Shown piece after piece: positions 1,430 to 20,000 of a stretch of 20,000 nucleotides of DNA. Both the position numbers and the translations under genes were made by a program. Where the stretch lies: the NCBI GenBank assembly GCA_040437565.1, contig JBDOQK010000031.1:369046-389045 (forward strand), written 5' to 3'. The notes under the pieces were generated by a model. It ran no database searches. It was not told the origin of the DNA and worked only from the letters and a program-made list of their open reading frames with translations. Position 1 is the first letter of the stretch, and the number at the start of each line of letters is the position of its first letter. The stretch is from Albugo candida. Lineage: Eukaryota.

Positions 1430-1680
1430 TGTTGAGGTGATCCAGTCGTTTAAAATATCTCATTCTTTTGACATTTTGTTTCTCATACGGGGCTTCTTCC
1501 CATACGCCCGTGTGTCTCACATTCCTTTTACTTTGTTTCCATGAGGGAGCTCATCGCACGGGAGATACATCGAGAGCTGTTGCGTCCGAACTGTTCATCA
1601 CGAGCGTCGAAAATCACAGCCACCTGACTTTTCCATACAGCCATAATTGAACAAAATGTATCAATCACAAGCTGAACTGA

Positions 1681-4600
1681 TCATTCCACCAGTTCAGCTT
1701 TTGATTTAGGACTATCCGATAAAACGTCACGAGGTGCATCAGCTTGGTCGGAATCGATTACCAGCTCTAAAAAGCTCAAAATGATCGGTTGGGTCTGAAG
1801 ATTGAGGCAGCTCCGGCAGATTTGATTCAGATATCCGTGCAATCGAACGACTTTATCTTTGAGATAATTTGGTTCGAGTTTATTCCATACTCTAGAATCC
1901 GGTAAAGGAGGCAGTTGCCCGTTGGGCAAGAGTTTTCGTAGTGATTGATGTAGCTTTTTGAATTCTGAATGGCGACGGTGAACCACTTTGATCGCGGAAG
2001 TCGATACTGCCACTTGGATGACGAAGACGGCGTATTGCATCCCATTAATGTCAAGCGATAATTGATACCCATCTATCCTGGTTTGGATACGCGAGACATC
2101 CCCAAATTCACTTCCATTGTGCTCTGTATCTTCCGTTAATGAAAATTGAGCGGAAAGAGATCGCTCTAAACGATCTTTGTGCCGAAATATCACACAACTG
2201 TGTACCTGTGCAAAAGCATCTAACCAGCGATTGAATGCAGCCTGGCCGCGAACTCGCATTTCTAACAATGTTCCATTTTTCGATAGAATTCGGAATAAAT
2301 GACCTGTTTCGTAGCTGAACATTCGAGTTTTTCTCAGGTCACATTGCGAGTTGGTAATATCTTTAGGAGCTTCATCATACGCCGTGATGGAAGTATCTTT
2401 TAGTACGATCCAACGATTCGTCCATCCTTCATACCAGCCTTTCGGAGCCTTTTCTTGCAGGCTTCCCACTTTCATTGCACCAAAATAATCCACACATTTG
2501 TCGGATGGTAAAGTTATCAAAGATTCATGCTTCCTACAAAGCCAACGAATCAGTTAAAAGCATGATCGACATTGAGCAGAGAAGTCTGTACCGTGTACGA
2601 TGATCCGCCCTTGCATCTTTGTGAGTCTCCGTGACACCATTGATAGCAGCAATCCATTCGTCCCGAGTCGTGGAAGAAGAAGCTCTCAGAGTCAAGGTCT
2701 CGGAACTATCCATCGAGGTGCAAAAACTTGTCTCCATCTGACCTGTTGGTGATTTCGATGTATCTGATACGGCTACTTGACTTCCATGCGTGTTCCTTTT
2801 ACAAAATCGGATTTTGAGCGTAAACGGATCATCCCCAATCACAGCCTCTTCAATCGAAGTGAAGTGATGCCGCCAACGGCGACGGCAAACTACATTTGAT
2901 AGATGTTGAAGCAGGAATAAGCGATCGTGAGTCATCATGACAACACGCTCGTACGAAAATCCTGTGCATTGGTCTCGAATAAGAGCAGTTCCAGACAGAT
3001 ACACATTTGCGTGTGGTGTAAGTTCTATGTGGTTTCGGAATAATTCTGGAAGCGGCATCTGAGCACTCAAATAGCGTCGAAGCTTGTCAATGACCGGACG
3101 ACACATTTGCATGATTGTAAACATCACAACATCCTCACTGAACCAGTACGAAGAATGTGATGCTGTTGCAAATGCATACTCCATCATCAGATTTTCTCGT
3201 ACTCGTCTTCGCATCACAAAATCAATTCTCGGAAACGGAAAGCCATGAGCTGGTGCAGTGATCAATTCCCACATTTCCTGAAGCTTGACGAAACCAATCT
3301 TCCGAACTGCAGCGGCCTAAAGTCCAAATCAGCCAAAATGTCCACTAAAACCATTCAATAACTCACATTAAGCAACTGCACTGGTGGCTTCTTATGCATC
3401 TCTTTCTTAATCAGTGGCTCGACACGATACGCAATCGGATCAATAGGGTGAAATATGTTGAAATATCGATTACAACGAGGCATATTGATACCAGCTGTGA
3501 AGCGTCCTTGTTCGATATCTAATTCTCCTCGTGAAAGTATCATCACAGGGACAGGAGACCTACACATGAATATGTCTGTCACACTGCGCGTTGCATCGCA
3601 AGTGGACACGTACCCAGCTGCAAAGAAATTCTCTACTATAAAGTTGAGAGGGGGAAAGTTCAGTCCCTTCTTGGAGTCACCCCCGCTTTGGTGACTCAAT
3701 ATATCATACGCAATCACTGAACCCAAAGAGTGTGCAAAAATTGATACGTGCCCTTCCCAGCCTAAATGGAGCGTATGAGATGCGCCAATGTATTACGAGA
3801 TGGTCTGTACCAGGATGTTCGTCAAGAAATATTTGATACTTTCTGTTCAATTGTTTTGTGACAGAATTGATAATTAGTTGCCCGTATCGTGGTGACAGAT
3901 AATATAGCACATCCATCAGTGTATCTTTGTTGAATTCACGAATGCTGGGTCAGAAAAGAAATAATCAGCGTCTATATCGTATAGTAGATAACAGTNNNNN
4001 NNNNNNNNNNNNNNNNNNNNNNNNNNNNNNNNNNNNNNNNNNNNNNNNNNNNNNNNNNNNNNNNNNNNNNNNNNNNNNNNNNNNNNNNNNNNNNNAGAAT
4101 TGATAATTAGTTGCCCGTATCGTGGTGACAGATAATATAGCACATCCATCAGTGTATCTTTATTGAATTCACGAATGCTGGGTCAGAAAAGAAATAATCA
4201 GCGTCTATATCGTATAGTAGATAACAGTAATCCCACCTTGAAGATCCTTCTGGGCAAATGAGATCAAATACATTATCGACACCAGTGGGTCCATGGAGAT
4301 CTTCGTGCCATTCGATAGATTGCATTTCCAATGCGAGAGGAATCTCACGAAATGTAGAATCAAGTGTACCCTGAAATAACTCTCTGAATGTGTGGCTTCC
4401 TCCGTCTAAACCTGACTGCCCATTCCACGACTTGAACTCCCCTTCTTGGAAATCAACGTGCTGACCAATTCCATGAATAATAAACATAAGATGGTTGATC
4501 GTTGAAAGTCGCAACTAGAACATACGCTGGATGAGTAATTCCGTATTTCTTTGATTGTTAGCGTTGCTTACGTACCGTTGATGGAAATTCATCGATGTTA

Positions 4601-5608
4601 TCATCCTCGCTATCACTTTCTTCAGAATCTGAATTGGTGAGTGTGAAAGCAACCAAATAAGAGAAAACAGCGAATTTATTGACTACTCACCGACTGACAT
4701 GGATCGAGTACTACGTGACAAATGTGCTGTACTGCACCTTCGAGTGAAATATCTGGTGTCATCTTGGTTTCTCCCGCGTTGTCTGGTCAGAAATGAAAAG
4801 TGTGTTGTCAAAAGCGGTAATCGCTGCTCATCATTCGGTAGCAATCTTGCAAAATCGAGTATAATTGGGCCGAGTTCTTCGATAGGAAGAACGTTCGAAA
4901 GGTAAGAGTGGAATTGAGGCGCTTCTTCATTGCCTGATCCAAATCGTAATGCATGATCCTTGAACCTTTCGAATTCAGAATCATCATTCAGCACAAACTG
5001 AAGTAGCCCAAGTTTAGTAAGTCATCGAAATTCGTCAGAATAACCCACCAAGATTCTTTTTGTGACTTCATCATTGAGAGCTTTTGCTGCCTGTTTGCCC
5101 TTCACCGGTACAACATCTTGGAAGTCTGACCTATCTGCGGCTCTCGTATCGTCTAGACGTGCAACGACAAATTCTTCGACATCATCTTCTTCCATTCTTT
5201 TAGTAACCCCATCGACATCAATGTCTCCAGAATCATGCGTGCCAACCTATTCAAAGCTAATCAGACAGAATTAGTGAAAAATAACTCGCAAGAAAAGCTC
5301 ACGTCAACTCGCTGCTGTAATTGAGATACTAATTGATTTAGCAGATGTCCAGATTTCTTCAGCTTTGTGATATTACTCAAGACTATATCGGTATGTACAG
5401 CAATAGACGATGTTAAATCGCTACTTTCGGTTGGAAACATCTCAAACTGCTGCTTTGACATATTGATGATTTCCATCATACTTGCTTGAAACTTCTTCGC
5501 ATATTTGGCCGGAAATACAATCTCAGGTGACACATCACTACTTTTGGCATGACATAGTGCATCACCACAGTCCATAGATAATATTGGCTTGGACGCTAGC
5601 GCAGTCAT
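1681..5608 (-). CDS. DDHD-domain (PA-preferring PLA1 family) phospholipase with N-terminal PAH-like module and C-terminal PH-PH-PX domains; 10 exons, ~1064 aa
   Basis: Minus-strand exons: 5608-5303, 5246-5049, 4997-4691, 4628-4576, 4514-4237, 4177-[gap/duplicate copy]-3811, 3761-3614, 3559-3367, 3316-2592, 2533-1681. All nine introns are GT..AG, 49-62 nt, and phases join in frame (3195 nt once the duplicated 133 bp is collapsed). Family motifs appear in order: HLMFIIHGIG, IEWH, IREFNKDTLMDVLYYLSP, VSIFAHSLGSVIAYDIL (nucleophile elbow, 3721-3735), FFAAGSPV, FNIFHPIDPIAYRVEPLI, RIDFV, HSSYWFSEDV. These are followed by two PH-like units (..LRASSSTTRDEWIAAI; WTNRWIVLKD..FNRWLDAF) and a PX-like unit (VHRRHSEFKKLHQSL..LPPLP..LHGYL). 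Confidence 0.85.
3863..4228 (+). repeat. 133-bp direct repeat flanking the N gap (3863-3995 and 4096-4228); probable unmerged contig overlap
   Basis: The two copies are offset by 233 nt and identical except G3929 vs A4162. Both copies abut the N run. Confidence 0.93.
3996..4095. other. Scaffold gap (100 N)
   Basis: Exactly 100 N, a common placeholder length for gaps of unknown size. Confidence 0.99.
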
Positions 5609-6224
5609 GATGGAAAAAATACACTGAGAACATTGAGCAGCTCATAATCGATATGATATGTGGTACACTTTATATACAAATACGAAGATTATTTATTATA
5701 GTCACTTCATTTTTTTGTATGCATCGTTAGAGGGTAGTCAATACGTGAGGAATATTCTGCGCGATTTTATTGATACTTGGTAGCGTATCGTAATACTTTG
5801 AATGAACGCGATATAGAGTTCATTTGTAGTGTCAAAAAGAGTACGAACTCGAAATACGACTGGTTGTTGATTTTAGAAATTGATAGCGTATGTATCAACC
5901 TATTTTCGAGTAGTGAAATCAAGGAAACCGCAATAAATACCCAGGGTAAACGCAATAGGATCACTGATTATGCCAATGAGTGGACACAAGTATATGCTGC
6001 CTTCTGCCGCGAGCTCCCCACGTAAACTTGACTGGCTCTGCAGTCGGTTAAAGAAACCACCAAAGCAGTCAAATCGACACAATCAGTTAGGCCGTTAATT
6101 CGCATTCTCTTTCGAATAAGTGTCGACATTAGTATCTTCTGTCGCGATGAGATCCGCAATACACTAGTTTAATGTGCTATAAGTACGCTGCATTTGCATT
6201 GTCCATTCTGGAACGATAAAACCA

Positions 6225-7279
6225 ATGGCTGGATGGGATTCGCTCGACAGTAGCAGCCCCACATTAATTATCTGTAGTATCATCGCATTAGCTATCTCCT
6301 CGCTACTCGTCTACAAATCAGAAATCTTTCGACATAAACATGCCCATGCATTACAGGTCACAAAAGGCGGGGAACCGATTACAGTTCATTTACCTCTCGT
6401 CGAAAAAGAGCGCTTATCACACGATACGAGACGCTTCCGATTTGCACTACCGAGTAAAAATCACGTGCTGGGCTTGCCAGTGGGTCAACATATTACTTTA
6501 CGATACAAGCAACCGGATGGAAAGGTTGTCATGCGCTCTTACACTCCCGTCACATCGGATGACACACTTGGCTATGTGGACCTTGTTGTCAAAGTTTATT
6601 TCAAAGACGTTCATCCGAAATTCCCTTTAGGCGGTAAAATGTCTCAGGTAATCAGATCTATTCTCATGTTGCATTAACTGTCTCAAACGAATGCTATGAA
6701 AGTACCTGGAATCACTTAATTTTGGAGACACGATCGAGGTGTCGGGACCAAAAGGAAAATTGACGTACCTTGGAAAGGGGAAATTGAAGATCAAGCGCCG
6801 AGTCACTGATGCGAATGCAGAAATTCGTTCAGCAAAGAAAATCGGAATGATTGCAGGAGGCACTGGAATCACCCCAATGCTGCAGATATTACGTCGGGCA
6901 TTGACAGATCCAAAGTATGTTCGTTTAAAATCTGGACAATCTTTCTTTACAACCTCTTCTCGTGAATAGGGATCAAACAGAATTTTTTCTCTTATTTGCA
7001 AATCAAACAGAACAAGACATCTTGCTCGTGGACGAGATCAATGCCATGGAAAGAGAACATGCGAAATTACACGTCTGGTTCACAATTGATCGTGACGCCA
7101 GTCCAACTTGGAATTACTCTGTCGGATTTGTGTCCGAAGATATGATTCGCGAGCATTTACCCCCACCAGCTTCCGATGTACAAATTTTTATGTGTGGACC
7201 TCCGCCAATGCTAACATACGCTGTGCAACCGGCTTTGGAGCATCTCGGTTATGAAAAAAGTATGCTGTTTGCATTTTAA
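6225..7279 (+). CDS. CYB5R: NADH-cytochrome b5 reductase, membrane-anchored; 3 exons, 314 aa
   Basis: Exons 6225-6647, 6703-6914, 6970-7279, with two 55-nt GT..AG introns. N-terminal hydrophobic anchor ([16 protein letters not shown]). Motifs: [27 protein letters not shown] (FAD), [25 protein letters not shown] (NADH), [21 protein letters not shown]-terminal FAF. Confidence 0.96.
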
Positions 7280-7309: not shown

Positions 7310-9152
7310 CTATACGATTTGACGTGTCAGACTGTTTGTTTTGCGATTCAATAGAGACGTATATGTGTTTTGTGGATCGACTTGTATTCTTTCCTTGGTC
7401 TTCCTCTGTGCGAGAATCAATTGATTGGAAGAAGATTTGATGTGATCACGACTCATGGCCTCCTCACACTCAATCTCCGAGGCCAAGGAGCGACCGATGC
7501 GATTACTGATCGCGATGTTGTCGCGTTGTTCACTGTGTTGACCATCGAATGCGGGATGATTCCACGAACTATGATGTATATCAACACCTTGTGTGAGGAA
7601 TGCGGACGTAACATCATCAACCTTCAGATCATGTGCAAACTGTGCAATGTCACCACTGAAAGACTCCTCATTCTCAGCGTCAATATTCAGCTGCTCGTTA
7701 GCTCTCGCATTTTGAATAATGCTCAGCATATGGGTGAGCACATTCTGAGTCCATTCAATAGCATCACACACAGATTCATCCGTGACACGAGCTCCGACAT
7801 TATCGCCTTGCACTCGCCTAATCTGATCAACCAAGTGCCCAACACCCGCTTTAATTCCGGTCAAAAGTATGTCATAGTGTCCATACTCTGCTTTCACTCG
7901 CTCCAACATTGCAAGAGTTGGAGTATATATTTGGTTGTGCTCTCCATTTACGTTGCGTCTAGCTTTATGATTAAGTTCTTTGTCTCGAATCCTCTCCTCA
8001 CTGTCGGTGTTTGACTGTTGCAAGGTAAGCAGGCGATGTTCGTTTTCATGAAGTAACTTCAAAAGCTTTTTCATCGTCGCTTCTTGATCAACAAGTTTTT
8101 CTATTGCCTCATCCACGTTGTTACTGCCAATAGTTTCCATCATTGCGCGGAAAGCAGACAAGAATTCTTGCGCACTATTCTGACCCCAATGAGCGTTTAC
8201 ACAATTAGGAACCTCTGGTGAGATCTGTTCGTGAACAGAGTTCTTTTCGGATGGAATGTCATTGTCAACGCCTTCAAGGGACGATTCTAGTTTGAATTCC
8301 CTAAAACCATCTAGCTCTTTGTCCGTTGAATTCACAAGATGAAGCTTTAAGATATGCTGTTTACCCTTCAGCTCTTGGTCGCGATTTCGCTTCTCCTCTT
8401 CATATTTCACTTTAAGCTTCTCGAGTTCTTGAAATGTATGTTCCTTCGATTGTGTTGCGTCCGAATGGAGCAATACCAATTCTTCATGATCCTGGTCTCT
8501 ACAAGCCATACTTTTCTCTATAGCGCTAATTTGTGTGTCAAATGCTATACGCTCTTCTTTAAGTCGTTTGACAATCTGTCGGTAGGTCCTACAGATATTT
8601 TGGGCTTCGTTATACTTCATCATTGCTTTGTCGAGCCTACATTCGAAAATGCGGATCTTTTTGACCTCAGGTGTGTCCTCGATACTTGGCTTCTTCGAGT
8701 CCAGCTCCAGATCTCTAAATTCGTCTTTCAAGTCTTCGTAGAGTGCTGTTTGAGCTTGAACGCGGTGACGCATATCATCGTACTGTTTACGTGACCGATC
8801 GAGAGCTTTGAGCAATTCTTCCATGCCTTCAGCCTTTCGACACCCGATAGTATTTGCTGTGGTGTAGCTGATCGTGTCAGAAGTATTCTGCTTCAATTCA
8901 GCAAGCTGTTTGCGCAGCTCCATATTTTCGTCTTTCAATTCTCGAATGTATTCTTTGTTTGTATGTTTATTTGATTCCAAGGAACTGATGTTGGACTTTC
9001 GATCGATTTCTACGTGATATAACGCGCAGATTCATCATGTCTCGAGTTGTGACTACCATCTAGAACTTACGTAAAAGCCGAATCTTTTCTCGAACATCTC
9101 CCATCTGTTCTCCTTTTCGCCTCTCATAGTCCTGCTCCAATTTCCTCAACAT
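7310..9152 (-). CDS. CCDC151: Outer dynein arm docking complex coiled-coil protein, CCDC151/ODAD3-like; 2 exons, ~593 aa
   Basis: Exon 1 is 9152-9071 (ATG..KIRLL), then a 61-nt GTAAGT..TAG intron (9070-9010), then exon 2 at 9009-7310. The spliced KIRLLQIDRKS..NKEYIRELKDEN and IRIFECRLDKAMMKYNEAQNICRTYRQIVKRLKEE resemble conserved segments of the CCDC151/ODA-DC family. The protein is coiled-coil throughout. The exact paralogue (CCDC151 vs CCDC114/63 class) needs a tree. Confidence 0.75.
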
Positions 9153-13314: not shown

Positions 13315-16300
13315 CTAACTCGCGTGAGGACATATAATAGAGGTGCTAAAGGCTGCATACATGAATGGAGCGAGACATAAATAAGACTGGGGTGTTTGGG
13401 GAGGTGGTTGATGATGACCGTGTAGCGGGATGTTTTGACTGGCAGATTGCTCTGTATCGATGTAGTCTGCACAAAGCCGTGAAAGCCGCGTGTTTAGTGC
13501 ATCGATATGTCCAAGGCATTGAACATGGGCTTTAATTTGATAAGTCGCTTGGCGAGTGACTGTAATTCCAATGTTGTTGTCGTCGTGAGAGCTTGTGACC
13601 GAGTCGGTCCGAAAGATGGTGTTGCTCCGTTCCATCCAAAGGATCTTGAGTACCACCCATTGAGCCACGTTGAATACCCGGAGAATGTTGTATATGCCGA
13701 ACTTCTGGCAAGCTTCGGTGCCTAGATCCAAAGAGATCCAATGAACCACTGTAGACCACTGTATCAGTGTCTGCACTGCCGGGCAATGATAGACGCAATT
13801 GATATCCAGCGTACGATAGCGATGTTTGTGATGAAGTCGTAAACCGTTGTGCTGTATTCGGAACTTGAGGTCAGAATAAATGGGTAATATATCATGGTCA
13901 AGATGGCGTTCCCGTTTCCACATCTGCATCCACCTGGTAGGCGCTGTAGCTCCGAGTACTTTGTCTGCAGGAACTGAGATTTTTTGGCAGAACATGCAAA
14001 AGCCGATAGATGTCTGCATTTTGGAGTATGGTGAACCGCTTATCCTTGAAGATCCAGGGTTGAGAGGCAGGCGGCAAGATAATTCCGAAGAAAGGGTCAA
14101 TACGAAAAGGGTTCATGAACAGATCGAGATCGTCAAAGTCTTTTGCGATGACATTTGCGGTCGCCGAGTGATCTCGGTTCCGATGGAAGGCGGTTGAGGG
14201 GAGGATTTTCTTTAGCAATGGATGAGTTCAGTTTTGAACCATGTAAAGCAATGAATTCGGAGAGATGTTGATAACCATGCTGATATAACCATTGGCAGTA
14301 CTGTGGGCTTACTCCAACGGACGTTTGAAAGGACCGAGAAAACTTTTGTAGTGGCGCCAAAGTGTTGCCTGCAAGTCATCGTTGTTGTGCGCGGTAGTGT
14401 TGCTTGGTCCATGCCGTAAGCGATACTACTACTGTAGTGTCAACTATCAAAAGGGTCCCAGCGATTGCCATCGCGGTTGAGGAACGTGTGAAAGGTGGAT
14501 TGGCGAGAAAAGGATTTCCAGTCCAATATCCTTGTCGTGTAGTGATGTAGTAATTGACTGTAGTACTGGAAGAAACCATCCTGGCGGAAAAAGTGTCGCG
14601 CACTCCCGAATTCCATCACATAAGGTGCCGAGATGCGTTGCACGTGAGAAGCTGTTGATACAGAGAAGTCCTAATCCACCTTTTGATGTTGGCCTCGTCA
14701 ACTAATCTTCTGCCATTGGGCCGCGTAAGGCTGTTGTGGATTCGAGAAGTCGCTGAAAAAGGAAGGCTTTGCACAGATTCCAAACCGAGGTCACTATTGC
14801 TGGGGGTTATTGGGGTGACCGCTGCCGGATCCCATAACAGGGAAAGCATAATAGATCACAAACGTAATGCTCGTCCACGAAAAGTACGTGCTCGAAACTT
14901 CCATAGTAGCAGTCTTGAATGAAAGCCTGTAGTATGGACGCAACTCGAAGCGTGCTAGCGTTTTCGGCATGTTGCATGACGCCAAGAAACGAAACTGAAC
15001 TTAAAATTGGAAGAGATGGAAACTCGGTATTTGTGAGAAATCGGTGGACAGTGGAATGAAAACTGAAAACCTGAGTCTTGGCGGTATTGAGTTAAAGTCC
15101 AACAACTTGTGCGCAGTGCTGTAAATGCCGGAGAAGACCAGTGACATCTTCAGCAAAAGCTGAGAGATGATGCTTTTCGGAATCATGTTGATCTGGTATC
15201 CCAATATGACCCGTTGTAGCGCGAAGATATGCCAAGATTGGTTCTAGAAATAGAGCAAACAGGGACGGGGATAGAGGGTCGCCTTGGCGAATTCCACTGC
15301 ATATCTGAAAGAAAGAGCTCGCATGACCATTTACCTTGATCCTGATGATGTTCTCTTTATACACCGTGTCGATCCAAGCACGGAAAGTCGAGCCGAAGCC
15401 AAACTGCCGAACTACGAGATGTGATACTGACTATAGAACACTTGTTGAATCGTAGTGCGCCCGATATGGTAGGTATAAAACTAAGAGTTATATTAAACGA
15501 CGTTTTACTGTCTGCTCATAATCGTACGATCCCTACGACTCTCTTGCGCACGCAGCCAACAGTCGCCTCGCTTATGAGCACTCGTTCTCTCCAGCAGTCA
15601 ATGTAGTCCAACAATCACCGTGTTCCAAGAGTCGCGTCGTTTCAAGGACACTATCAAAAGTTTTCGCATAGTTCAATAGAGTGTTCGGAGGTCTTGGAAT
15701 CGAATGAGGGCGTGTCTGATAGATCGGCCATGGACGAAACCATTTTGATCGGGATGTAAAAGTCTTGGTGGGATGCATTTGAGTCGATGTGCCAGTATAT
15801 TCGGCCCAAGATTCGCGTCATGATTCAATAGTGTGATGGGTCGGTAATTACTTGGCTGGGATCGATCTCTTTCTTGTATAGATGGTTGATGTAAGCACGG
15901 AGTTGGAATTTATCATTCTACCCTTTGAGAGTTGGTGGGGTTGAACGATATTCAATACTTGCGCCCAGTCGAAGGGAAACAGCTGATAGACTACATCGGA
16001 AGTTCATCGTAACCAGGGGCTTTCGAGCGGTGATATGATCGGATTGCCCAGTAAAAATCGTTTGCTGTAAACGGAGAATCCATGTAAGAGCGGTCAATCT
16101 GGGAGAGGGATGTTGTTGTGTTGGAGGAAATCCTGCACCGCCCCAGCATCGTGATTCCGTTTGGTGTGATGATACTCTTTGGATGGGGATTTGAAAAATG
16201 TCCGCCCAATAAGTGTTGTGATCTTAAGCCATTTCCTTAGTGTCCGTTGTAAGTGTTCCCTCCGCACGTAGCGTATACGCCGGAGTATCGGGGTTGGGAG

Positions 16301-17440
16301 ACGAAAGAAGTACTTCGAGGGACGCTCACTATGAGTGATGTCCCTATCAAAGTGATCGCGCGCACTTGATTTGCTTCGGGTTTCTTCCAATTCGTAAGGT
16401 GATCGGAAAGTGTGGTAATCTCCCTAACACGAACTGGGGACGGAGTGTGGAGTCGATTCCTCGCCTCCTCGATTTCCTCGGTACGCTTGGTCGTGATGCG
16501 GCGAAACATGTAACGCAGATAACGTAAGTCATCGCGTTTATGCTCGTCATATATCGCGCCAGGATTATCGAAAGGTCCATTGCGGTGGCGAGACTTGAAC
16601 GCGGAGAGAGAGATTTGGAGGGATTGTTCGATCTCCGTTATCTTGAATAGCCAAGTCGGACACTTCCGAGGAAGTTTGGACTGCTTGGGAAATTCTGGAT
16701 GCTGGAGGCGGAATATGACCGGAAGATGGTCGGCACGTTGATACTTGGTGGCATGATCGTGTCGAATGCTGATGAGGGAATCATGAAACAGCACGGACAA
16801 AGGGAAGCAGTAGTCGATACGATTCCTGCGACCAGGACCCGTGTATTCCTTGCTGGTAGGATGCGTTGTACGCCAAGCATCGATAAGTCCCAAGTGCAAT
16901 GTTCATTGGGGTAATGCCTCGGCATCATTTCCATTATGAGTCGGCTTGCTGGCATCGACGATAGGGTCTAATGGGACGTTAAAGTCCCCCATGATGATAT
17001 GTTGGATGTCGGTAGGAAAGTAGATTGGTAGGGACTTGTAAAACGAGGTACGAGCTAAGAGTTGGGCCGGGGCGTAGAGAACATGGATTCAAACTCGATG
17101 ATGCTGGAGAGAGGTTTCCATAAGCAAGTACCGATCATGGAATCGTTGTGGGATGTGTTTGTCGGTGATGTTGGCCATAAGGTCAAAATGGTGGGAAGAA
17201 GACAGAAGAAGTCCCACTCCATTGTAACCACAGCCGTTTGAGATAGACGTTGGGGACCAATAAGCGTGGGCATGAGTATCCACACTCGAGATAAAGTGAT
17301 CATTCTTGCGGCGGTTGTCGTCAGTACTGAAACGGGTTTCTTGAAGGGCGATTAACTGGTAGCATGAAAGGAGGGTACGATATAGTGTGGGGTGAGAGTT
17401 GTTGAGGCCATTGATATTGATGGAGATCCCATTAAGTGAC
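13315..17440 (-). pseudogene. LINE ORF2 remnant: APE endonuclease + reverse transcriptase + Cys/His-containing C-terminal region
   Basis: Endonuclease: SININGLN, IALQETR, VLYAP, HIIMGDFNVPLDP (~16965-17003), LIDAWR, NRIDY, DHLPV. RT: KAPGYDELP, NYRPITLLNHDAN, DQNGFVHGRSI, LNYAKTFDSV, FGFG, GIRQGDPLSPSLFALFLEP, SAFAED (degenerate F/YADD), GL*LNTAKT. Downstream: GGLGL and a CVYHC-containing segment. Many premature stops and frameshifts. Confidence 0.92.
15420..15650. mobile_element. ~230-bp non-RT insertion inside the LINE RT; TGT...ACA termini, possible solo or truncated LTR
   Basis: RT homology stops at LNYAKTFDS(V) (~15650) and resumes at LVVRQFGFG (15418 downward). The intervening DNA starts TGTGATAC (15420) and can end ..GGACA (15650). 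No TSD is visible. Confidence 0.5.
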
Positions 17441-17449
17441 CAAGGCTGA

Positions 17450-19573
17450 TTAACGGCACGGATCCTGAACAGAGTTCTTTGTTGAAGCGGAGTCGTAGGA
17501 AGAGGAACCCGCTTCTTCCATTGACTCGTTATTGGAAGCAAAACAAGCGAGCACCCCTATTGCTTCGCTGATATGCAGGGGAGCTTTTTCGATAAGAGTA
17601 CTACCAAAGGATGAACTCGCCAATGCCATAAGAGTGAGGTCATCCCAAAGTAAAAGTGGGAGCGCCATATCCTATTCGGATTGGGGCATCCGCTAATGTA
17701 GCGATCTGAAGTGGATTCATGTAAATGGACGCCGCGGAAGATCGAAGGTAAAGGTCGAATAATGCGAGAGCATGGGCCGCAGTTCGAGCATCTTGAGTCT
17801 AGAGAAGTGTTTCGAGTAACGTCGAATGAGGCGGAATATCCGCACCATAACGGGTTTGTAGGCGATCCATTAGAGTGTCGGAGTCCCCAAAAGTATGATC
17901 CGGTGCTGAGCAAATAGCGCGCATGATGGCGTGTTCGGTAATGAGTGCCGTAAGCCGTGGTGAAGGTTTGGTAAGAGCCGGAGAAATGGCGGAAGGTTGT
18001 GCCGCAATGATTGCAAGTCTCTTTTCGGGTTCCGCTTCGTCTACGAAGAGAACCTGATGTGCTTTGATATGCTTCCGAAACCCAGAGAGTCTAGCGACAA
18101 CTTAAGGGCTTTGTAGCATACAATGTTGCACCAACATGCGTGATATCGAATCGGAAGGATAAAGGGGGTTACCCCGAACTGATGTGTTGTCCACGATAAC
18201 GTCACACGTGATAGAGTCCCCTTCATTTTCATCATCCAGAGGATGAAACGCGAGCTGGTATTGGGTTGGGTATACTGGGAAGTTGAATGAGACGTGGTTG
18301 TCGTGGTGTTCTTCCACAATCTCGACAAATTGACTGGTAGTAGGAATGGGTGGTGTCTTACACGCCAGTTGATGGGAAACCGTGATCCAGTCTTCGAACG
18401 GTGCTGAAGTCGAGGGTTTGACGAAAGTCACTCGAGGTTCCTGTTGAGCTTGTTTCTGAGAAGATTCCAAAGACGCTACTTGAGTTGCAGAGGCAGTGTC
18501 CAAGTCGTAGTGCGTAGACTGGGGCTTTGAGGATGCTTGCTTGACCACAAGTGAGGGTGATGTGACTTTGTTGAGTGCACGGTGTTTGATGAACGAAAGC
18601 GGGGTGTTCATGACCGGGAAAGAAGATTTCGCGAAGAGGTTGATTGGTACTGTAAAAAAGGGCTTTGGGCGGTTGTTTGGAACGAAACCATATAGTACGG
18701 TAACGGGATTGAAGGGGTCCTTGGTGTACGTATGGTGCAATACCGAATTGCACGTTGAAAGTCTTGAAGTAGTCGAAAATGTCAAGGTCACCAACACCAA
18801 TGAAGACGTTGCGAAGGTCGACATAGTACCATTCACATATTGACGGTATGGTTGAATTTGAAGCTGCTTGCCCAAGCAGCGGATAGTGGAACCACCAAGT
18901 TTGATGGCAATGTCCCGATCATTGCAGTGAAACTTGATACCGCGACCCCGTACACATAAGAAGTCGCAAACGTGAGGAAGCGAAGCAGTCCAAATCTCGG
19001 CTTTGTTCTCCCGATGCTGTGAAGCTAGAACATCTTCTAAGCTGAATATTGTTGTGAGTTTTGGGACGGGGTAAAAAGCTCGACCTTTAGGCTGGGGTCA
19101 ACCCATGATTTGGCCACTTCGCGTAAGGCGAGGGCTTTAATGGTGTCTTCGGAAGCATTGGAGTCGTATGCTTCACTAAGTGCTTGGAAAAAGGATGAAT
19201 CGCTGGGAATATAACGCTCACATTGGGGGTTGTCCTCACGGTATTTGTCGCGGATCATACGATCCGATTGTTTGACCGGTAATGTCTTGGCCGTTTTTGG
19301 TGACATATTGGGCCCGAAGGTCGGCAGTAGGGACTTCTGATCCAAACAAGACGCTAAAGGTGCGAACTGAAAGGCTGGTAGAGTTGGTTTGTACTGTTCT
19401 TCCTGAGTAGGAAAGGACGGAAAAGGCTGATGTCGACTTCTACCGAAGAAGGAAAGACGGGTAAAGACGGACTTCGAATTCTTCGCTAGGAAGGAAAGGC
19501 TGAGTCGAGCTTCTACCGGAGAAGGAAAGGCCGGAAGTAATGTTCTTCGAAGCTGGTCCACGGAAAGATCCAA
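17450..19573 (-). pseudogene. LINE ORF1 (gag-like) remnant
   Basis: Frame-shifted fragments directly upstream of the endonuclease: ..GIKFHC..KLGGSTIRCLGKQLQIQPY, WYYVDL..DIFDYF, SRYRTIWF..PLREIFF, KHRALNKVTSPSL, LLLWDDLTL. Position and recalled motifs resemble oomycete L1 ORF1 proteins. The true start is uncertain. Confidence 0.65.
19405..19550 (+). repeat. Imperfect tandem duplication (~73-bp period) in the 5' part of LINE ORF1
   Basis: AAAGGCTGATGTCGACTTCTACCGAAGAAGGAAAGACGG (~19423-19460) vs AAAGGCTGAGTCGAGCTTCTACCGGAGAAGGAAAGGCCGG (~19495-19534). Confidence 0.6.
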
Positions 19574-20000
19574 GGAAAAAACCGACGATAAATACCAGTG
19601 TTGAGAACGTTGGTAACGGAAAGACGAAGTTGATATTGAGTTGGCAGGGAAGGGTTGGGTGAAGGTTGGAACTGGTAGCTGGAAAGCTGATAAGACACGC
19701 GAATTTTGCGTGAATGCTGGTTGCTGATTGGCTCTTGGATGTACGGTGTGAATGTCACTTGCGTACTAGAGAGCAAATAAAGAAGTGGAGGGCAAGTCTG
19801 GTTTGTTAAATCTCATTACACTGTTTAATCTAACTAAGGTGTAACAAATAAGGTTGGGAAGTGCATACCTCCAGCATACAAGTATGTTGGAGCTTTTACT
19901 GTCGCATATAGTTGTCTCTTATGACAAAAGGAAAACAGTAGAGTGGTCCACATAGTCAATCCAAGTTTGATGATCTCAAAGTTGATGAGACGAAGTGGTA

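Follow-up and report, generated by a model that had tools for sequence, protein, structure and literature searches.

A putative phospholipase A1 of the DDHD family with a C-terminal PH-PH-PX tail, encoded by a single gene of Albugo candida

A row of open reading frames (ORFs) spans positions 1681..5641 on the minus strand of a 20,000-nucleotide stretch of the Albugo candida genome (assembly GCA_040437565.1, contig JBDOQK010000031.1, positions 369,046 to 389,045; hereafter the window). Do these frames belong to one gene, and what would its product do? A first-pass annotation, made from the letters alone, had spliced them through nine introns into one in-frame protein of about 1064 amino acids (aa), a DDHD-type lipase followed by two PH-like domains and a PX domain. 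Our results indicate that this gene model and architecture, a DDHD lipase and a PH-PH-PX tail in one gene, are almost certainly correct. The product of this single gene is likely to be a soluble multidomain phospholipase A1 (PLA1) that is recruited to phosphoinositide membranes, the lipid probably being phosphatidylinositol 3-phosphate (PI3P).

When the last ORF fragment, which encodes the tail, was used to search for longer proteins, just two were returned, both from Albugo. One is P0001 ('unnamed protein product [Albugo candida]', 1053 aa), which is 100% identical to the fragment; the other is P0002 (F0WGH3 of A. laibachii, 'Phospholipase putative', 1058 aa), with 88% identity. These values assign the window to Albugo candida or a very close strain and not to Phytophthora. 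Threading P0001 on the window gives the limits of ten exons separated by nine introns (Table 1). All nine introns are GT..AG, with lengths of 56, 51, 62, 61, 292 (as assembled), 49, 54, 50, and 58 nt, and the window differs from P0001 at a single residue (Arg, codon 3502-3504, versus His483). The choice of start codon sets the length of the protein: The ATG at 5575, used in P0001, gives 1053 aa, and an in-frame ATG at 5608, located 33 bases upstream, adds 11 residues to give 1064 aa, the length and intron number first proposed. The N terminus that begins at 5608 resembles the one annotated for the orthologue in A. laibachii.

We compared four sequencing runs with the window over 1500-5800, as contigs and not as reads. 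One contig in run X1 and one in run X2 are spliced at each of the nine junctions exactly as predicted, and every piece that these contigs skip has CT..AC ends on the plus strand. The two contigs start at 5650 (X1) and 5619 (X2) and extend past 1500. A 29.6-kb contig in X8 retains all introns, and short contigs in X4 retain those that they cover (9, 8, and 4). An intron-less form beside an unspliced form in other runs is the appearance of cDNA-derived contigs. A point against this reading is that the RNA nature of X1 and X2, both from one study, rests on the label 'RNA?', which was guessed by the tool; no run with this stretch is recorded as RNA.

The same contigs bear on whether two genes, a DDHD lipase at 5608-2592 and a PH-PX gene at 2533-1681, have been wrongly merged. 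The last exon is by itself a long ORF with PH and PX matches, and the databases hold tail-only fragments (P0018, P0029, P0065, and P0078), as two genes would predict. The spliced contigs of X1 and X2, however, skip exactly 2591-2534 and continue through both parts; since single contigs join all nine junctions, 1681-2533 is not a separate gene. The reading frame is kept across the junction, the exon-10 frame being entered via a codon split by intron 9, and the first ATG of that frame falls within the second PH domain. Both parts also occur in one protein in 26 of the 120 profile matches listed. The two-gene reading is thus rejected, with a negligible probability left to it, and the single-gene claim, for which the first-pass annotation had singled out this intron for checking, stands.

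Three smaller features of the transcribed region were also seen. Before the first in-frame ATG (5608) there is another ATG at 5645, out of frame and in a 5′ part that only the X1 contig covers; it could open a short upstream ORF. The X1 contig is without three bases at 5185 (exon 2, in frame). This gap and the Arg/His difference at residue 483 are strain differences.

The assembled length of intron 5 is caused by a feature of the assembly that the first-pass annotation did not mention. A run of 100 N at 3996-4095 is flanked by duplicated sequence (3863-3995 and 4096-4228, identical at 132 of 133 bases). Unspliced contigs of X8 and X4, the latter in one short contig, skip exactly 233 bases (3929 to 4163), which confirms that neither the gap nor the duplicate is real. 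They are a scaffolding artefact, an unmerged overlap, and the intron measures 59 nt once the duplicate is collapsed.

What domains does the spliced protein contain? We called them by Pfam, AlphaFold2, and fold search, with positions in P0001 numbering. On single ORF fragments, Pfam finds a PX domain (2.9e-13), a DDHD domain split into halves on separate exons (4.9e-18 and 8.4e-8), PAH_ZNF598 on the fragment 4686-5021 (9.7e-10), and two weak PH matches that are both under the cut-off (1.2e-3 and 8.6e-4). On the complete P0001, only four families score above their cut-offs: DDHD (PF02862; 109 bits, cut-off 28.3, 6e-31, in two stretches), PX (PF00787; 48.4 bits, cut-off 21.6, 1.4e-12), PAH_ZNF598 (PF23202; 39.3 bits, cut-off 25, 8e-10; 34.2 bits on P0002), and PH (PF00169; 36 bits, cut-off 25.1, 1.1e-8, in two stretches).

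The AlphaFold2 model of the whole protein, built on a 36-sequence alignment, has a mean predicted local distance difference test score (pLDDT) of 77.7 and a predicted template modeling score (pTM) of 0.67. Two long helices (23-94) come first, and after a disordered stretch the chain forms a bundle of five helices (142-237). An acidic linker, also disordered (234-271), leads to an alpha/beta domain (277-612). The next unit has seven strands plus a helix (619-762) and contains a loop, 703-732, that is disordered; another unit of this type follows (773-878), and a linker joins it to a unit of three strands plus helices (920-1024). The domain order is therefore N-terminal helices, a bundle resembling PAH and harmonin-homology domains, acidic linker, lipase plus DDHD, PH, PH, and PX. 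For PH1, PH2, and PX, the model's domain limits agree within about 50 bases with the coordinates first proposed, and Pfam, AlphaFold2, the fold search, and the relatives concur on two PH domains and a PX; the N-terminal PAH_ZNF598-like domain had been overlooked. No 19-residue window exceeds a Kyte-Doolittle mean of 1.6 and the N terminus is not hydrophobic in the four proteins checked, so that the protein is probably cytosolic and peripheral, with neither signal peptide nor membrane span.

The motifs expected of a DDHD lipase (AHSLG, HPIDP, RID, and HSSYW) are all present. In a 36-row alignment spanning oomycetes, labyrinthulomycete-type proteins, and one haptophyte, the putative nucleophile Ser426 (AHSLG), Asp504 (HPIDP), Asp560 (RID), and His582 (HSSYW) are identical in all 36 proteins. 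HSLG, part of the GxSxG-type serine motif, is likewise kept in 36 of 36. Among the 35 rows that extend over HGIGxH, 34 have this motif and one has HGVG. Asp590 is a further Asp, found in Albugo and in 30 of 36 rows; the matching of these residues to the four canonical DDHD columns is our own reading. The fold comparison aligns residues 280-603 with the DDHD domains of Nir1/Nir2 (Z 24.4-23.4, 261-275 residues aligned; E 1.3e-25 by profile) and also with alpha/beta hydrolases and lipases (Z 13-14). The lipase core is thus intact, as first described, and the conserved residues make it likely that the enzyme is catalytically active.

The C-terminal domain has a clear set of nearest relatives. Residues 915-1029 superpose on the CISK/SGK3 PX domain with Z 16.0 and a root-mean-square deviation of 1.8 Å (110 of 111 residues aligned); the best PX match is SGK3 by sequence (E 6e-6) and SNX16 by profile (1.1e-12). 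The nearest PX domains by sequence and fold are those of SGK3/CISK, SNX16, SNX24, and Grd19/SNX3, with several of the entries titled PI3P complexes. In PX domains, PI3P is canonically contacted by the RR(Y/F) Arg, by the aromatic residue, by a basic residue that follows the PxxP loop, and by an Arg in helix 2. The Albugo domain keeps the RR[Y/H]SEF arginines and the PxxPxxR loop. Among 33 PX rows, Arg957 is found in all, Arg984 (after the proline loop) in 28, and Lys997 (helix 2) in 30; the residue following Arg957 is Tyr in 26.

We regard both PH domains as real because, in five relatives, a Pfam PH match (profile positions 13-18 to 103-104 of 105) maps onto P0001 645-757, the place of PH1, where the family profile also matches PLEKHA7. 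Matches at this place include those of P0020 (9.8e-14) and of P0027, an MMETSP transcript (1.6e-10). The fold search finds the PEPP1 PH domain (Z 12.9) over a range (625-882) that does not separate PH1 from PH2, and Foldseek matches two-PH proteins (FARP1/2 and centaurin alpha-1) together with many PX domains.

The N-terminal bundle resembles the harmonin-homology domains of CCM2, harmonin, whirlin, PDZD7, and RTEL1, which occupy ranks 1-7 of its fold matches (Z 9.0-7.7), and the Sin3 PAH domains (Z 7.5-5.8), at sequence identities of 7-15%. These top matches form a consistent family and agree with the Pfam name PAH_ZNF598, a family that is precomputed on at least 30 oomycete orthologues with DDHD and PX (26 with PH, four without). 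Harmonin-homology and PAH-type domains are docking sites for helical peptides. In the literature searched, no paper linking ZNF598 with a PAH domain was found.

How widely is this architecture distributed? A HMMER search against 1.84 billion representatives gave 2009 relatives at E <= 1e-3, of which 170 at E <= 1e-30, and 35 of the best 150 were scanned with Pfam. Eight of the 35 have DDHD and PX together, six of these eight also with PH. DDHD occurs with PH only in six, with WWE (with or without SAM) in six, with PAH only in one, and by itself in seven; a further six are fragments of the tail in which PX occurs alone or together with PH, and one is a fragment of DDHD end, PH, and PX. Among the 120 profile matches listed, 26 proteins representing 10 oomycete genera have the complete set of four Pfam families, and four more have PAH, DDHD, and PX without PH. 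The genera represented are Albugo, Peronospora, Phytophthora (many species), Hyaloperonospora, Plasmopara, Bremia, Globisporangium, Pythium, Lagenidium, Saprolegnia, Achlya, and Aphanomyces, with truncated forms in Nothophytophthora, Thraustotheca, and others. The database names of the matches are 'phospholipase', 'DDHD domain-containing protein', or 'hypothetical'.

By its Pfam domains, the architecture is common to all sampled oomycete orders. Outside the oomycetes, the matches listed include a DDHD-PH-PX protein of the haptophyte Prymnesium parvum, and P0026, named 'Phospholipase DDHD1', has the same DDHD-PH-PX core in the thraustochytrid Hondaea fermentalgiana. The suggestion that the architecture is lineage specific therefore fails in the narrow sense of that term. 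The PAH-like domain was seen in none of the non-oomycete DDHD-PH-PX proteins found. Behind this protist group rank plant SGR2 and DDHD1-like proteins of animals, which score about 200 bits and align with 15-26% of the query. An ESM Atlas search with P0024 gave no usable match.

We built a maximum-likelihood tree of the catalytic core (40 rows chosen of 261 proteins, 338 columns, unrooted, with support from the Shimodaira-Hasegawa-like approximate likelihood ratio test). The 12 WWE/SGR2/DDHD1-like rows form a clade (support 100) that excludes every PH- or PX-bearing row. The 16 oomycete rows form another (99), as do the five Hondaea-type rows (99) and the Prymnesium-type rows (99). Since the tree is unrooted, it gives no order of age between the PH-PX and the WWE accessory sets. 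The extra Aphanomyces paralogues (P0006-P0008, P0015, and P0025), in which DDHD stands by itself or has only PH beside it, fall within the oomycete clade, indicating that the tail was lost secondarily there.

Two further observations concern the database models of these relatives. Pythium oligandrum has two neighbouring paralogues (P0175 and P0180, locus tags ending 000902 and 000903). In the models P0173 (Lagenidium) and P0186 (Phytophthora lilii), DCN1-type domains (PF03556 and PF14555) are joined to the lipase; these models are probably mis-merged neighbouring genes.

By every sequence criterion applied, the protein is a member of the DDHD/intracellular PLA1 family (DDHD1, DDHD2/KIAA0725p, SEC23IP, SGR2, and Ddl1). 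It has in common with this family the DDHD domain, a GxSxG-type Ser, the Asp/Asp/His residues, and a predicted soluble nature without signal peptide or membrane span. The scanned relatives from this family carry WWE and/or SAM or nothing (SGR2 rows carry PF23463), whereas the Albugo protein has an N-terminal PAH-like bundle and a C-terminal PH-PH-PX tail. These accessory modules (PH-PH-PX, and in oomycetes the PAH-like bundle) appear from the domain content to mark a subfamily distinct from the WWE/SAM members. The first-pass annotation had stated that characterised DDHD proteins carry WWE/SAM modules or none; SGR2, DDHD1-like, and unnamed representatives do carry them, but none of these is established as experimentally characterised, and the claim holds only as far as the modules go.

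Resemblances to three other systems are partial. The nearest solved match of the core is the DDHD domain of Nir1/Nir2 (PITPNM; structures 9c38, 9c37, and 9jyx), from lipid-transfer proteins with other domains, whereas the Albugo protein has intact lipase motifs. In Nir/PITPNM proteins, PITP and LNS2 domains flank the DDHD domain; the Pfam scan of P0001 found no other lipid-transfer-type family, and the Nir/PITPNM domain set is thus absent. With SGK3/CISK and the sorting nexins, the PX domain has in common the RR-aromatic-SEF and proline-loop motifs, but it has His for Tyr and Lys at the helix-2 basic position, and it is joined to a lipase and not to a kinase or BAR domain. The bundle matches PF23202 above the cut-off and has a predicted fold similar to harmonin-homology and Sin3 PAH domains.

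PX and PH modules beside a phospholipid-hydrolysing catalytic domain also recall the PX-PH phospholipase D enzymes (PLD1/2). The order in these enzymes is PX-PH-catalytic; in the Albugo protein it is the reverse, catalytic-PH-PH-PX, with two PH domains. A PXPH-PLD group is named in oomycetes in PMC3056787. Membership in it is rejected, as a Pfam scan of P0001 (E <= 1) showed no PLD family. What the two have in common is their logic and not their descent.

What, then, might the enzyme do? DDHD1 is described as a PLA1 acting on phosphatidylinositol (PMC6824679), yeast Ddl1 as a PLA1 (PMC6056544), and DDHD2 as a phospholipase/lipase whose membrane binding requires its SAM and DDHD domains (PMC6056544). 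From this enzymology we infer hydrolysis of an acyl ester of a glycerolipid: The core would remove an acyl chain, probably at sn-1, from a glycerophospholipid. The type of PX domain and its closest relatives suggest recruitment to PI3P membranes. The C-terminal PX, helped or tuned by the two PH domains, would bring the enzyme to phosphoinositide-marked membranes, probably PI3P-bearing, and the likeliest targets would be endosomal, vacuolar, or autophagic membranes. The predicted fold of the N-terminal bundle suggests that it docks a protein partner. The role in phosphatidic acid/lyso-phosphatidic acid signalling proposed in the first-pass annotation is a guess.

Several observations weigh against this proposal, and the alternatives draw on most of them. 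Among solved structures, sequence and fold searches alike place the Nir1/Nir2 DDHD domains closest to the core, and PMC12582312 describes Nir2 as sensing phosphatidic acid; the core could then be a non-catalytic sensor of a lipid such as phosphatidic acid. This is very unlikely, since the AHSLG Ser, HGIGxH, a pair of Asp residues, and a His show little or no variation across 36 relatives, and the fold match extends to lipases; no solved catalytic DDHD1/DDHD2 was among the structure matches, and Nir may simply be the only solved relative. Nor does the literature searched report activity, substrate, lipid binding, or localisation for the protein or its orthologues. The bundle's Z scores (up to 9.0) are within the range that helical bundles reach by chance, and a Foldseek search with it gave no match at E <= 0.001. 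If instead the enzyme were a lipase of neutral lipids (triacylglycerol or diacylglycerol), its tail would position it where lipid droplets touch endosomes or vacuoles. PMC10689277 and PMC10665947 describe mammalian DDHD2 as the principal neuronal triacylglycerol hydrolase, and the catalytic core is common to both proteins. We consider this unlikely: No sequence feature points to droplets, and the oomycete clade lies outside the clade of WWE-bearing, SGR2, and DDHD1-like rows, so that substrate preference is not transferable from either DDHD1 or DDHD2.

The choice of lipid is the least firm part of the proposal. The ring-stacking Tyr of the PX domain is His (His958) in both Albugo species. In the pairwise alignment, the helix-2 position opposite SGK3 Arg90, a residue needed for PI3P binding in SGK3, is Lys. 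PH1 alone is under the Pfam cut-off in the Albugo protein, and on inspection of the sequence neither PH domain shows a clear basic beta1-beta2 signature (K-Xn-K/R-X-R). The whole-chain pTM of 0.67 gives a hint that the domains are held in fixed contact. Rather than PI3P, the PX and PH domains might read another phosphoinositide, or bind proteins, or regulate the lipase intramolecularly, which is a distinct possibility short of probable. Against it stand the Tyr in most PX-bearing relatives (26 of 33), the conserved RR and PxxPxxR residues, and the PI3P-binding company of the nearest PX domains. For PI3P as the targeting lipid, we see a slightly better than even chance.

A more far-reaching reading would set the DDHD-PH-PH-PX proteins apart as an old branch of intracellular PLA1 in protists, with a PX domain whose role goes beyond anchoring. 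The substrate would be the recognised phosphoinositide pool itself, or else neighbouring phosphatidic acid, and the enzyme would deacylate or remodel PI3P-type lipids at endosomal or autophagic membranes. We regard this as quite improbable. If true, oomycetes would turn over phosphoinositides, or signal through lyso-lipids, by way of a phospholipase A (Phytophthora is without phospholipase C according to the first-pass annotation), and the PAH/harmonin-homology-like bundle would couple the oomycete enzyme to a protein partner.

On the preferred reading of a recruited PLA1, the interest lies in the accessory modules. DDHD lipases shape membrane traffic, lipid droplets, and the acyl chains of phosphoinositides in animals, plants, and yeast, where WWE and SAM domains steer them. 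Here, the same core would be steered by PH, PH, PX, and a PAH-like bundle, a set kept from Albugo to Saprolegnia. The unstudied subfamily is a candidate link from PI3P membranes to lysophospholipid production in oomycetes, many of which are pathogens of crops and animals. This link is a hypothesis from domain content and describes no new kind of system. The proteins are already public, with the four Pfam families precomputed by automatic annotation. We found no paper on this architecture or on any oomycete DDHD protein (most subscription journals are outside the search), in agreement with the first-pass statement that no functional description was known.

Table 1. Positions of the lipase gene, its exons and predicted domains, and neighbouring features in the window
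Feature	Position	Strand	Evidence or remark
Whole coding region	1681..5608	minus	ATG 5608-5606 or 5575-5573, stop TGA 1683-1681; ten exons, nine introns
Exon 1	5303..5608 (from 5575 in P0001)	minus	Threading, spliced contigs; predicted N-terminal helices, P0001 residues 23-94
Exon 2	5049..5246	minus	Threading and spliced contigs
Exon 3	4691..4997	minus	Threading and spliced contigs
Exon 4 (53 nt)	4576..4628	minus	Threading and spliced contigs
Exon 5	4237..4514	minus	Opening part of lipase core, HGIGQH motif
Intron 5 as assembled (292 nt)	3945..4236	minus	N gap and duplicated flank inside 59-nt true intron
Exon 6	3811..3944	minus	Threading and spliced contigs
Exon 7	3614..3761	minus	Carries AHSLG lipase motif
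Exon 8	3367..3559	minus	Pfam DDHD domain begins; HPIDP, Asp504 codon 3441-3439
Exon 9	2592..3316	minus	DDHD end (Asp560 codon 3223-3221, His582 codon 3157-3155) and PH1
Intron 9 (58 nt)	2534..2591	minus	Skipped in X1 and X2 spliced contigs; kept in X4 and X8 unspliced contigs
Exon 10	1684..2533	minus	PH2 and PX
N-terminal five-helix bundle, residues 142-237	4758..5096 (intron 5048-4998 inside)	minus	PF23202; pLDDT 88.6 when modelled alone
Lipase plus DDHD core, residues 277-612	3065..4578	minus	Interrupted by introns 4-8 and gap
Putative nucleophile Ser426 codon, in AHSLG (residues 424-428)	3727..3729	minus	Ser in 36/36 relatives
PH domain 1, residues 619-762	2615..3046	minus	Model; partial Pfam PH match 711-756; PH matches in five relatives
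PH domain 2, residues 773-878	2209..2526	minus	Pfam; model; P0003 PH 44.4 bits at homologous place
PX domain, residues 920-1024	1771..2085	minus	Pfam; CISK/SGK3 fold match; RRHSEF, Arg957 codon 1974-1972
Convergent K/E-rich ORF, 475 aa, open at window start	2-1429	plus	Arg/Asp/Ser-rich tail; no Pfam match
FAD_binding_6 oxidoreductase fragment	6186-6677	plus	Pfam 2.7e-27
ODAD1-like central coiled coil	7313-9031	minus	Pfam 4.6e-8
Fused trehalose-6-phosphate synthase/trehalose-phosphatase, single ORF of 919 aa	9499-12255	minus	Glyco_transf_20 2.2e-179; phosphatase 1.1e-40

The neighbouring genes (Table 1) are unrelated to the lipase and give no clue to its function. The stop of the convergent ORF lies 251 bases from that of the lipase gene, and the spliced X1 contig (6812 nt) continues for 3397 nt past position 1500, bridging the 3′ ends of both. 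ODAD1 is involved in outer dynein arm docking, which fits a flagellate life stage. Farther along the minus strand, 13318-19765 holds several ORFs of 177-331 aa with no Pfam match, where the GC skew is strongly positive (0.13-0.29 per 1-kb window).

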